From an uncultured delta proteobacterium (GTDB taxonomy: Bacteria > Desulfobacterota > Binatia > UBA9968): a DNA stretch of 64,000 nt. Below the pieces are notes generated by a model. That model made no database searches, was not told the origin of the DNA, and saw only the letters and a program-made list of their open reading frames with translations. Of the stretch, positions 42,479 to 45,659 are shown in pieces (the first letter of the stretch is position 1; each line of letters opens with the position of its first letter). A program made the position numbers and the translations under genes. The DNA lies in NCBI GenBank assembly GCA_963727625.1, contig CAVSHR010000002.1:1-64000 (forward strand). Reading direction: 5' to 3'.

Positions 42479-42952
42479 TTGGAAACCACCGCACCGGAAA
42501 TAAAATTTGCCGCGGATCGGATGCTCGGCAGGCTGGCGAAGTGGCTCCGTGTCCTAGGACAGGATGTCATCTACGGTCAGCATTTGACCGGCTATGGTTT
42601 GATCCGCGCCGCACGGGCCGAATGCCGTTTGATTCTGACTCGCGACCGGCGCTTGAAGCAAAAACAGCCGCCGCCGTTTATTCTTATCGACAGCGATCAC
42701 TATCGCGAGCAAGTGCGCCAGGTGATCGAAACCTGTCAGCTTACGATCGGCGCCGCGATTTTTACCCGTTGCGTCGATTGCAATGCATTATTGCAGCCCA
42801 AGGCCAAAGAAACCGTGGAGACGTTGGTTCCGCCCTACGTTTTTGCCACCCAGGAGACATTTTTCCGGTGCCCGGTCTGCCGAAAGGTTTATTGGCCCGC
42901 CACGCATCATAAAAGAATGCTGGAACAGTTGAAGCAAATGGGCGTCCGGTGA
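42479..42952 (+). CDS. Mut7-C RNase (PIN-like + zinc ribbon) domain protein
   Basis: DRMLGRLAKWLR.LG.D, LTRD, RC..CN, C..C.KVYW. Confidence 0.9.
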   Translation: METTAPEIKFAADRMLGRLAKWLRVLGQDVIYGQHLTGYGLIRAARAECRLILTRDRRLKQKQPPPFILIDSDHYREQVRQVIETCQLTIGAAIFTRCVDCNALLQPKAKETVETLVPPYVFATQETFFRCPVCRKVYWPATHHKRMLEQLKQMGVR

Positions 42953-43005
42953 CCTAGAAATTCGCTTTTTTGTGTGTTAAAAACTCAGGCTGTCGTTAAA
43001 TTGTT

Positions 43006-43342
43006 TCCCCGGTAGCTCAGTCGGTAGAGCAGTTGGCTGTAAATATTTAGAGTTGCAGCTTTCCGTCGTGAGGCGGAATGAAAAATCGGGTGAATTCAGG
43101 GGAGCCTAAGGAAGAAGTTCGCTTCTTCGATGGTAATCCTGAGCGAAGCCTGCCGAATGGGGAGTTAGTAGGCAGGAACGTGCAGAGACTAGAGGTTGAG
43201 GACCCCATCCAATAAGACCTCGTCAGCGCCCGACACCCGTCACGAGTTCGTGCTCCGGGTGATGAGATAGTCCAAGCCTGGTAGAAATGCCAGGGCACTT
43301 GTAACCAATTGGTCGGGGGTTCGAGTCCCTCCCGGGGAGCCA
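43006..43342 (+). tRNA. tRNA-Asn(GTT), interrupted by a group I intron (exons 43006-43040 and 43302-43342)
   Basis: Joined exons give a 76-nt cloverleaf TCCCCGG..GTTGG-CTGTTAA-CCAAT..TTCGAGT..CCGGGGA-G-CCA. Confidence 0.95.
43041..43301 (+). ncRNA. group I self-splicing intron (IC3-like, no homing endonuclease)
   Basis: P1 with U.G at the splice site; P3 TCGGGTG/CGCCCGA; P/Q elements; P7 GACTA/TAGTC; GNRA-capped P2 and P9; terminal G. Confidence 0.92.
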
Positions 43343-43349
43343 GCTTTTA

Positions 43350-43385
43350 ACTCCGCTTCGGTGATTACTCTCACCGAAGCGGAGT
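43350..43385 (+). terminator. 15-bp perfect hairpin after the tRNA
   Basis: ACTCCGCTTCGGTGA-ttactc-TCACCGAAGCGGAGT; no U-tract on +. Confidence 0.45.
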
Positions 43386-43433
43386 CCGCCAAGTCAATTC
43401 TGATCATGCGCCAGAGCGGCAGGAGGTCTTCCG

Positions 43434-45659
43434 ATGGCATCTTCGAAACAAATCGTAGGTAATCCAACTCCGAGAGTCGAAGGCGAGCTGAAGGTCAGCG
43501 GCGAGGCGAAATACGCGGTGGACGTGACTCTGCCGGGCATGTCGTGGGGCAAGCTGCTGCGCAGCCCGATCGCCTCAGCAAAGATCAAATCCATCGACAC
43601 AAGCAAGGCGGCGGCTCTGCCGGGTGTGCACGCGATCGTCACCGGGCAGGATTGCGCGGGACTGAAAATCGGCCGGCGACTTTATGACATGCCGATCCTC
43701 GCCGACGGCGAAGTTCGATTCATCGGCGAAAAAGTCGCGGCGGTAGCGGCCGAAAGCGAGGAGATCGCCGAAGAGGCGGTCAATTTGATCGAGGTCGAAT
43801 ACGAAGAAACCGAGCCGTTGCTTGATCCCGTCGAAGCGCTCAAGCCGGGGGCGAAGCTTCTCCATCCCGATGTCATGAACTACAAGGGTTTGCCCAAACC
43901 GCTCAAGGAGCCGACCAACGATTTTGTCTACGTCACCTGGGGCAAGGGCGATGTCGAGGCCGGCTTCCGCCAAGCGGATGTGATCGTCGAAAATACTTTC
44001 ACCACGCCGGTCGTGCATCAGAGCTACATCGAGCCGCATTCCTGCGTGGTTAGCGCGGCGGCCGACGGCTCGGCGGAGTTTTGGTCGTGCAGCAAGGTGC
44101 CCTATGGTGTCCGCGATCAAGTCGCCAACGCGCTCCAGCTGCCGCAGGAAAAGCTCAACTTCAATCCCGTGTATATCGGCGGCGACTTCGGCGGTAAGGG
44201 CGATTTCATGGATCTCGCCGTAGTTTATCTGCTGTCCAAGAAAGCCGGACGGCCGGTAAAATTAGTGATGGATTACGAAGAAGAGTTTGTCGCGGGCAAT
44301 CCGCGCCACGCTTCGATTATCCACGTCAAAACCGGTGTAAAGAAAGACGGTACGCTGGTGGCACACCGGATGAGCTTCATTTTCGACAGTGGCGCCTACG
44401 GCGCGTTCAAGCCCAACGCTTTTCTCAACGGCCCGCACCTGTCCGCCGGGCCATACAAGATTCCTTACGTATTCATCGAAGAGCATATGGTTTACACCAA
44501 TAAGATTCCCTGCGGCCATATGCGCTCGCCGGGCGATCCCCAAGGCTTTTTTGCCAACGAGAGCCAGATGGACATGATCGCGAAACGGTTGGGCATGGAT
44601 CCGATCAAGCTGCGCCAGAAAAATTTCATGCACGACGGCGACATCGATCCGACCGGTGAGGAGTACAGCTATATTAAAACCGACGAGACTCTTAAAAAGG
44701 CGCTGGGCGATTCCGGCTACGAAAAACCCAAGGCGAAAAACGTTGGGCGCGGTGTCGCGTTGGTCCAGTGGACGCCCGCCGGGGGCATCGGAACGGTGGC
44801 GATCTCGCTCGATGAAAAAGGCGAGGCGACGATTTCTTCCGCCATGGCCGATCAAGGGGCGGGCACTTACACGGTGCTCAGCGAAATCGTCGCCGAGGAA
44901 CTTAAAATTCCTTTAAGCCAGATCAAAATTCACCAACTCGACACGCAGAAAGGCGTGAAAGACACCGGCGTCGGCGGCAGCCGGGCGACGCGGGTCTACG
45001 GTAATGCCGGTTACGCTGCGGCACTGAAGGCTGTCGATGCGATCAAGCAGGCGGCGGCGAGCCAAATGGGCGTGGCGGCGGATCAAATCACGCTCGCCAA
45101 GGGTGGGGCGCTGCACCCGCGTATGGAGCGGCGCTTGACCTATGGCGAGATCGTCAAAGCCAACGGTGGGCCGATCCGGGTGGATGCGACATTTAATGAT
45201 ACTTCCAAGATTCACGCGGCGTCCATGTGCGTCCAGGTGGCGGAAGTGGAAGTCGATCCGCAAACCGGACAGGTCGAGCTCAAGAAATTCACCTCGACGC
45301 ACAACACCGGCACGGTGCTTAACCCGCTGATGCATCAGGGGCAGATCGAAGGCGCCAGCATGACCGGCATCGGCTATACGCTGATGGAAGAGGTCGTCAT
45401 TAGCGACGGTAAAGTCGCCACGACTCACTTCGGCGAGTACAAGATCCCGACGATCAAGGACGTTCCGATGTTTAAGGGTTCCGTTACGGAAGAGCCGCAG
45501 GGCGCGGGCCCTTATGACAGCATGCCGATCGGCGAGACCGGCAATATTCCCACGGCGGCGGCCATCGCCAATGCGGTGGAGGACGCCTGCGGCGTGCGGA
45601 TCAAGAGCCTGCCGATCACGGCGGAAAAGATTTACCAAGCGCTGCACGGCGCCAAGTGA
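43434..45659 (+). CDS. xanthine dehydrogenase family molybdopterin-binding subunit
   Basis: GGDFGGK, MRSPG, GQIEG, YKIPT, IGE. Confidence 0.93.
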   Translation: MASSKQIVGNPTPRVEGELKVSGEAKYAVDVTLPGMSWGKLLRSPIASAKIKSIDTSKAAALPGVHAIVTGQDCAGLKIGRRLYDMPILADGEVRFIGEKVAAVAAESEEIAEEAVNLIEVEYEETEPLLDPVEALKPGAKLLHPDVMNYKGLPKPLKEPTNDFVYVTWGKGDVEAGFRQADVIVENTFTTPVVHQSYIEPHSCVVSAAADGSAEFWSCSKVPYGVRDQVANALQLPQEKLNFNPVYIGGDFGGKGDFMDLAVVYLLSKKAGRPVKLVMDYEEEFVAGNPRHASIIHVKTGVKKDGTLVAHRMSFIFDSGAYGAFKPNAFLNGPHLSAGPYKIPYVFIEEHMVYTNKIPCGHMRSPGDPQGFFANESQMDMIAKRLGMDPIKLRQKNFMHDGDIDPTGEEYSYIKTDETLKKALGDSGYEKPKAKNVGRGVALVQWTPAGGIGTVAISLDEKGEATISSAMADQGAGTYTVLSEIVAEELKIPLSQIKIHQLDTQKGVKDTGVGGSRATRVYGNAGYAAALKAVDAIKQAAASQMGVAADQITLAKGGALHPRMERRLTYGEIVKANGGPIRVDATFNDTSKIHAASMCVQVAEVEVDPQTGQVELKKFTSTHNTGTVLNPLMHQGQIEGASMTGIGYTLMEEVVISDGKVATTHFGEYKIPTIKDVPMFKGSVTEEPQGAGPYDSMPIGETGNIPTAAAIANAVEDACGVRIKSLPITAEKIYQALHGAK

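Follow-up and report, generated by a model that had tools for sequence, protein, structure and literature searches.

A compact group I intron without an open reading frame splits the anticodon of the sole tRNA-Asn gene detected in an uncultured Binatia-type bacterium

The tRNA-fMet intron of Synechocystis PCC 6803, a subject of work by Bonocora and Shub in 2001, reportedly comes with a homing endonuclease and is one of the systems with which the locus described here can be compared. In the text of Williams (bioRxiv 2020, doi 10.1101/2020.01.27.920355), a database of group I introns is said to list only four bacterial tRNA settings, namely Leu.3Ug, Arg.5Ug, fMet.2Ug, and Ile2.5Ug, all of them IC3, which agrees with the classical sites in Leu(UAA), fMet, Ile(CAU), and Arg(CCU) that an earlier note on this DNA had named. 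The same text reports 17 new tRNA settings from 5292 introns and counts 343 cases of group I introns in tmRNA. The term Asn does not occur in that text, in which the settings table is an image, nor in the available text of a 2014 review (PMC3984707). A literature search that had most subscription journals outside its scope returned no description of a bacterial tRNA-Asn group I intron and no paper describing Asn and Asp introns mainly in Patescibacteria, a distribution that the earlier note had mentioned.

The window analyzed here is the whole 64-kb stretch of DNA (64,000 nucleotides) and lies on contig 2 of an assembly of 6.62 Mb in 15 contigs, which is 98.45% complete with 6.3% contamination. 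Within it, a tRNA-Asn(GUU) gene occupies positions 43006-43342 (this gene, its parts, and the adjoining repeat are all given on the + strand) and is split after anticodon position 35, between 35 and 36. Exon 1 (43006-43040, 35 nt, ending in CTGT) comprises the 5' strand of the acceptor stem, the D arm, the 5' strand of the anticodon stem, and the loop nucleotides C32, U33, G34, and U35. Exon 2 (43302-43342, 41 nt, TAACC...CCA with the CCA encoded) contributes U36, A37, A38, the 3' strand of the anticodon stem, the variable loop, the T arm, and the 3' strand of the acceptor stem, and the anticodon loop reads CUGU/UAA, with the stroke at the intron site. Reading of the sequence confirms the coordinates that the earlier note gave for the two exons and for the 261-nt insert between them (43041-43301), which ends in G43301.

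Both Rfam RF00028 and ARAGORN in intron mode support the view, put forward in the earlier note, that this insert is a compact group I intron lacking an ORF. In this mode, ARAGORN reports tRNA-Asn(gtt) and places an intron of 261 nt at loop position 36, i(36,261). Removal of the insert restores a standard tRNA, since ARAGORN folds the coordinate-joined exons, as the earlier note had suggested doing, into a normal cloverleaf of 76 nt for tRNA-Asn(gtt). Over 76/76 nt, the joined sequence equals that of the intronless tRNA-Asn of congeners at all six loci shown (L009-L014), exon 1 being the first 35 nt and exon 2 the last 41 nt of the intronless gene. As the intronless genes equal exon 1 plus exon 2 exactly, the mature product must be ...GGCUGU/UAACC..., with the anticodon GUU and the intron at 35/36. 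Under the naming rule given in the Williams (2020) text, this setting would be Asn.4Ug (tRNA-Asn, after loop nucleotide 4, U at -1, 3' G). At a probability of roughly 0.88, we favor the reading that this is a working tRNA-Asn(GUU) gene from whose transcript the 261-nt self-splicing intron at 35/36 must be removed, and that the HNH gene carried by relatives in the P1 loop has been lost here, leaving the intron an immobile passenger.

The surroundings of the gene can be described briefly. A perfect 15-bp inverted repeat without a T run lies just 3' of the tRNA CCA (43350-43385); its start, CTCCGCTTCG, is also found 3' of the intronless gene at three of the congener loci (L009, L012, and L013), and it is absent from the list of the terminator scan. 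This repeat is possibly a processing or termination hairpin. A promoter scan found no sigma-70-like promoter in 42800-43500.

The group I covariance model that the earlier note had proposed to apply, RF00028 (Intron_gpI), matches 43031-43294 over its full length (1-253/253) at 86.7 bits (E 1e-20) against a gathering score of 50 bits, and this is the sole Rfam match in the 64-kb window. The minimum free energy (MFE) of the 337-nt precursor is -135.5 kcal/mol, compared with -113.6 +/- 5.2 kcal/mol for 100 shuffles, none of which was as low (z -4.22). The MFE fold contains the acceptor, D, and T arms of the tRNA together with P1, P2, P3, P4-P6a, an extra hairpin, P8, and P9; the helices are taken from this fold, except the pseudoknot pairing of P7, which is taken from the Rfam alignment. 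All predicted helices are intact in the window copy.

At the 5' end, P1 pairs 43035-43042 (GGCUGUAA) with 43053-43060 (UUGCAGCU) around a 10-nt loop (43043-43052). Within it, GCTGTAA (43036-43042) faces TTGCAGC (43053-43059), and U43040 at -1 forms a wobble pair with G43055 at the 5' splice site, so that the P1 proposed in the earlier note is upheld by both the sequence and the MFE fold. The core pairs of P1 (C-G, U-A, G-C, and U.G) are invariant in 56/56 homologues. P2 (43061-43078) has 7 bp and a GNRA loop, GUGA (43068-43071), and all seven of its pairs change on both sides among the homologues. P3 is formed by UCGGGUG (43086-43092) with CGCCCGA (43227-43233) and is 100% paired in 56 sequences. 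P4 (43096-43101 with 43137-43142) and P5 (43104-43106 with 43132-43134) are 95% paired, P5a (43111-43117 with 43122-43128, closed by a UUCG loop) shows changes on both sides in a region that is poorly aligned, and P6 (43143-43145 with 43179-43181) is followed by P6a (43149-43154 with 43171-43176), in which both partners vary in 6/6 pairs and pairing is kept in 98.2% of cells.

P7, which forms a pseudoknot with P3, pairs GACUA (43187-43191) with UAGUC (43268-43272) and is invariant in 56/56 sequences; the earlier note had placed both P3 and P7 correctly, as judged from the Rfam alignment. Between P7 and the 3' strand of P3 stands the extra hairpin (43192-43221), in which GAGGU pairs with ACCUC around a loop with a conserved UGAGGA..CCAAUAA; in the alignment to the Rfam model it shows up as inserted sequence, with changes on both sides in 5/5 pairs and 73.5% of cells paired. 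P8 (43234-43239 with 43256-43261, plus 4 inner bp) shows changes on both sides in five of its six outer pairs, and P9 (43277-43294, 7 bp, GAAA loop at 43284-43287) shows them in 7/7, with 90.3% of cells paired. The terminal guanosine (omega G) at 43301 stands before the 3' splice site, and a G precedes TAA(C/T)C in 84/84 homologous loci with both junctions resolved. As the earlier note had observed, the intron lacks an ORF: it contains no + strand ORF of at least 60 aa, and the two antisense ORFs that overlap it (43047..43298 and 43240..43467) are mechanical.

To assess covariation, 56 distinct homologues without an ORF were aligned, and the structure of the window copy was mapped onto them. 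Standard pairs fill 89.3% of 4121 cells, compared with 75.0% in shuffles and 31.6-40.3% with slid partners, and 50 of the 77 pairs change on both sides, giving a covariation score of 0.393 against 0.140 that was reached by 0/500 shuffles. The covarying elements are P2, P6a, P8, P9, the extra hairpin, and the anticodon stem of the tRNA. Compensatory change is therefore present among the core helices P3-P9, in which P3 and P7 themselves never vary; as the 5' strands of these two helices were fixed by the search pattern, their invariance is partly by construction, and covariation speaks neither for nor against them.

The earlier note had also offered a possible P10, TAAC with GTTG, and this candidate did not hold up. 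Its cells are paired at 59.4% in the 56 homologues compared with 59.2% in shuffles, a value reached by 338/500 shuffles; it reuses G43055, the partner of the splice-site U in P1, and its outer G-C pair occurs in 8/56. No conserved P10 was thus found in this alignment. A P10 is unnecessary for calling a group I intron, and in tRNA introns the anticodon stem may serve to align the exons.

From the known chemistry of group I introns, the following course of splicing can be hypothesized. P1 would present U43040 as the U.G wobble, and free guanosine would attack 3' of it; G43301 would then move into the guanosine-binding site of P7, and exon 1, now free, would attack after G43301, joining CUGU to UAACC. 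The exons are probably held together by the anticodon stem of the tRNA and not by a P10 helix. It is conceivable that splicing in the cell requires a host protein or chaperone, such that the intron would not be truly self-splicing; such assistance is known for some group I introns according to the available text of Hausner (2014, PMC3984707), and the missing conserved P10 would be in keeping with it. The core is complete, however, its L2 (GNRA) and L9 (GAAA) loops are present as in the Azoarcus pre-tRNA-Ile, which self-splices in vitro (PMC13168695, from the part available), and no maturase-like ORF is seen, and we therefore regard a need for such a helper as unlikely. For the window intron, we infer self-splicing.

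Additional context comes from four soil RNA-library runs belonging to four studies, with the proviso that RNA libraries can also contain DNA. Contigs from these libraries that are 88-99% like the window intron are those of relatives, and some run unspliced across 43301/43302. A 603-nt contig, in which 302 other letters replace 9 at 43041-43051, represents the endonuclease-bearing form. Loose contig ends at 43040 run on as TAACC... with the exon 2 of other organisms and may stem from intronless genes. The spliced junction of the window organism, whose own exon 2 is identified by TAACCAATTGGTCGGGGG..., does not appear in the four runs.

Default ARAGORN reports 49 tRNA genes in the genome, covering every amino acid except Asn, and finds zero tRNA in the 64-kb window, just as the earlier note had anticipated in saying that annotation tools may miss the gene. 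BLAST with the joined exons across the genome (about 6.6 Mb) returns the window locus and, apart from it, 21-22-nt D-arm matches in two other tRNAs only. An additional call by ARAGORN in intron mode, 'tRNA-Asn(gtt) i(41,2008)' at C11:69511-71613, is false, as its ends are unlike tRNA-Asn and it has no RF00028 match. By ARAGORN and BLAST, no second tRNA-Asn was thus found in this 98.45%-complete draft genome, in line with the conditional suggestion of the earlier note that the gene might be the sole copy. It follows that, as far as a draft genome can show, Asn codons can be decoded only once the intron is removed; with 15 contigs and 6.3% contamination, a second tRNA-Asn in unassembled DNA is possible.

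If the real tRNA-Asn did lie in such unassembled DNA, the gene seen here could be a dead pseudogene blocked by its intron. The draft nature of the assembly leaves some room for this, and one relative (G025) does possess both an intron copy truncated at its 5' end and a separate tRNA-Asn gene that is intact and has no intron. Yet both exons of the window gene are identical to the intronless gene of congeners, and this identity to intronless orthologues suggests a gene in use. Every helix is preserved, as are the U.G pair and the terminal G, no other Asn-like sequence occurs in the 6.6 Mb, and the window locus is the orthologous tRNA-Asn locus of the order. These points make a pseudogene very improbable and favor a working gene whose transcript has to shed the intron. 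The missing tRNA-Asn in the output of default tRNA finders, for the window genome as for many other metagenome-assembled genomes (MAGs), can be mistaken for a sign of an incomplete genome or of an unusual genetic code, for which ARAGORN in intron mode, or Rfam, provides a remedy.

The distribution of the intron was followed from the host's order outward. It occurs in 14/123 genomes of the order (including the window genome, G000), at the same syntenic locus. By family, these are 10/89 in f1 plus G000, 3/5 in f2, and 0/28 in f3; 11/27 genera are represented, and 3/31 genomes of the host's genus. In an even draw of the phylum, 5/401 genomes match at E <= 0.001, one of them over only 27 nt (L032 of G489), which is no intron copy. 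All full copies from the order and phylum searches lie in tRNA-Asn.

A scan of all species genomes with the pattern ATCGGGTGAA-N75-105-GTGCAGAGACTA gave at least 119 stretches, and 80 loci were fetched. Both tRNA-Asn junctions, CUGU/...G/UAA(C/U)C, are present in 69 of the 80, and four more have one such junction, being otherwise cut by a contig end or ambiguous. One locus (L086) has an endonuclease gene upstream of the core only, with neither junction placed. The others are in tRNA-Thr(UGU) split after position 36 (3/80; L053, L076, and L089), in the tRNA(CAU) of Giesbergeria sinuosa, likewise split after position 36 (1/80; L057), and in tmRNA genes of Lewinellaceae MAGs (2/80; L040 and L097). 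Eighteen phylum-level labels, as given by the submitters, occur among the matches listed, including Cyanobacteriota (Microcoleus and Tychonema), Nitrospirota, Bacillota, Acidobacteriota, Ignavibacteriota, Bacteroidota, and Chloroflexota; as the records are mostly MAGs, these labels are only as good as the binning. The same intron is found at the same site in many phyla and is not rare, and the host does not extend its range in the notable way that the earlier note had considered. The window intron is a new member, from a new host lineage, of a widespread known kind, and nothing here changes knowledge of group I introns.

Comparison of the locus among relatives, another step that the earlier note had recommended, reveals one orthologous tRNA-Asn locus with the intron present or absent. 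In the window, a gene with a Mut7-C RNase domain (42479-42952; PF01927, 136 bits) lies upstream of the tRNA-Asn, and a gene for a molybdopterin subunit of the xanthine dehydrogenase family lies downstream (43434-45659). The Mut7-C gene is upstream of tRNA-Asn in 18/21 related loci, among them all loci of the host's order whether they carry the intron or not, and the xanthine dehydrogenase-like gene is downstream in 10/21. As loci with and without the intron share these neighbors, the intron represents a presence/absence polymorphism at one orthologous locus. The immediate adjacency of the Mut7-C gene to tRNA-Asn is kept throughout the order. At one locus (L006 of G029), the 5' part of tRNA-Asn is partially duplicated some 100 nt upstream of the complete, intron-bearing gene, the duplicate matching exon 1 over 27 nt.

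The earlier note had suggested that the intron might reflect horizontal spread, and a recent acquisition from another phylum would accommodate both its patchy occurrence in the genus and order and the homing endonuclease carried by relatives. In a quick maximum-likelihood tree of 84 intron cores, from which the 5'-truncated copy of G025 and the contig-split copy of G091 were left out, some phylum labels are indeed mixed, for example Bacillota with Aminicenantota. The tree as a whole argues against recent import, however: the window falls in a 15-row clade (SH-aLRT 95) that holds all 14 full-length copies of the order, the window included, and in which just three rows bear names, two of them 'Candidatus Binatia bacterium' and the third 'Deltaproteobacteria bacterium'. 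Phylum labels change 21 times on the tree, near the minimum of 17 and far from the shuffled mean of 43.1, and the locus is syntenic across the order. Recent transfer from another phylum therefore seems quite unlikely. The pattern agrees with an intron that has long resided in the lineage, homing between close relatives and being lost repeatedly, whereas mixed clades in other parts of the tree would allow for transfers outside this lineage.

The order also illustrates how the intron may have lost its mobility. Among the 69 tRNA-Asn loci, intron length is bimodal (48 of up to 310 nt, 15 above 500 nt, and 6 between). The extra stretch of about 300 nt always occupies the P1 loop and codes for a small protein bearing the motif CxxC...HH...CxNCH. 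Among the tRNA-Asn introns of at least 340 nt (n=26, two of them sharing one sequence), the CxxC...H...CxxCH ORF is complete in 15, with 106-173 aa; in the remaining 11, it is truncated, frameshifted, or internally deleted. The Pfam HNH model (PF01844) gives 17.7 bits (E 0.0041) on the ORF of relatives, below its cut-off of 21.4, so that the HNH assignment rests on the CxxC...HH...CxNCH motif. The HNH-like frame continues through the 3' strand of P1 (P1'), P2, J2/3, and P3 (in L007, L016, L029, L045, and others), and the ribozyme core is therefore also read as the C-terminal tail of the protein (...LQLP.E..VEKSGEFRE). In two MAGs labeled Aminicenantes (L062 and L103), in-frame internal deletions join an N-terminal MSD(K/R)RRYS... 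to a C-terminal ...CANC(H/R)(R/K)EVH....

Within the host's order, the endonuclease gene is intact at two loci (L007, with a 114-aa ORF, and L016), differently frameshifted at two others (L004 and L005), and reduced at L019 to a remnant of its first and last approximately 20 nt only; L005 and L019 come from genomes flagged as unpublished (G005 and G093). A remnant like that of L019 is also present in a phylum-level relative outside the order (L031). The window, L006, and L020-L024 have no trace of the gene, and the 10-nt P1 loop of the window leaves no endonuclease ORF. At a single syntenic locus, the order thus displays the life cycle of the homing endonuclease as a clear natural sequence of stages, from the empty allele through intact HNH, frameshifted, and remnant forms to the ORF-less intron. 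On this view, the intron belongs to an extensive bacterial family of tRNA introns with kinship to the classical tRNA(CAU) type, and within this family the P1-loop HNH homing endonuclease of relatives would spread the intron into intronless tRNA-Asn alleles. As the gene has been wholly lost from the window copy, we propose that this copy has become an immobile passenger, which would persist because it sits in the only tRNA-Asn gene found and still splices. Judged from sequence, the intron is very probably functional and self-splicing in a sole tRNA-Asn gene, with its homing endonuclease lost.

Related introns in other genes provide a broader setting. In the three MAGs labeled Proteobacteria (L053, L076, and L089), the core and the extra hairpin occur in tRNA-Thr(UGU) with the junctions UUUGU/...G/AAUCAGU. 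In the two Lewinellaceae MAGs (L040 and L097), an RF00028 match of 90-94 bits is either adjacent to or overlapping with the end of a tmRNA match (RF00023, 81 bits), and tmRNA introns are a known class. It could be speculated that all introns with this core and extra hairpin, whether at 35/36 of tRNA-Asn, at 36/37 of tRNA-Thr(UGU) or tRNA(CAU), or in tmRNA, belong to a single mobile lineage that has moved repeatedly from one RNA gene to another, and that in genomes with a sole tRNA-Asn and no endonuclease, splicing acts as a guanosine- and Mg2+-dependent gate on all Asn decoding and is not a neutral passenger. We consider this joint proposal distinctly improbable and retain the reading of an immobile passenger in a working tRNA-Asn gene.

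The window genome also holds a second group I element, which lies outside the window on contig 8 of G000 (85440-86559; L002 1478-2597). Its RF00028 score of 45.1 bits is below the cut-off of 50. It consists of the 5' half of a tRNA-Leu(CAA) followed by an intron core, and its P1 has C-1:G and not U.G. Homology to relatives ends after the 3' strand of P7; where P9 and the beginning of the 3' exon would be expected, there are instead about 800 nt that contain an antisense ORF, and the element therefore looks like a pseudogene. An intronless tRNA-Leu(CAA) is on contig 9 of the same genome. Intact versions of the tRNA-Leu(CAA) intron, with the junction GGACUC/...G/AAAAUCCAC, are found in G077 and in the unpublished G005, and G077 has three full copies and one partial copy within 12 kb. 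The GGACUC/...G setting is 'Leu.3Cg', for which the text of Williams (2020, doi 10.1101/2020.01.27.920355) gives Proteobacteria only and flags splicing as untested.

When placed beside the described systems, the window intron fits the naming scheme of the Williams (2020) text in its position after the fourth anticodon-loop nucleotide of tRNA-Asn, its U at -1, and its 3' G, and it was detected by the route used there, through Rfam Intron_gpI and ARAGORN intron mode; it differs in its host, an uncultured Binatia-type bacterium, and in being a copy without the endonuclease gene. With the classical IC3 introns in Azoarcus sp. BH72 tRNA-Ile(CAU), Agrobacterium tRNA-Arg(CCU), and cyanobacterial and plastid tRNA-Leu(UAA), it has in common a small, ORF-less ribozyme in the anticodon loop, the P1 U.G pair, the P3-P9 core, and the GNRA loops L2 and L9. 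Its site at 35/36 of tRNA-Asn, in contrast, differs from the classical sites after 34 or 36 in other tRNAs, its length of 261 nt compares with 205 nt in Azoarcus (PMC13168695, from the part available), and it has the extra conserved hairpin between P7 and the 3' strand of P3. The IC3 label used here follows the text of Williams (2020), and this hairpin is outside the Rfam consensus. A direct tie to a classical site is nevertheless evident, as the tRNA(CAU) intron of Giesbergeria sinuosa (L057) agrees with the window intron in 196/233 aligned columns (84%). For the tRNA-Thr introns (two aligned, L053 and L076), the identity is 76-78%, and the tRNA(CAU) and tRNA-Thr introns share the extra hairpin of the window intron with the CCAAUAA loop. 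The tmRNA introns have a common core pattern with it, but their host gene is tmRNA and not the anticodon loop of a tRNA.

The comparison with the Synechocystis tRNA-fMet intron concerns mobility. Both belong to mobile families of group I introns in anticodon loops, with an endonuclease that would target the intronless tRNA gene and a sporadic occurrence among relatives. The Synechocystis endonuclease reportedly belongs to another fold, whereas that of the tRNA-Asn family is an HNH-like protein of about 100 aa, encoded in the P1 loop in a frame that runs on through P1', P2, and P3, and the window copy is without this gene.
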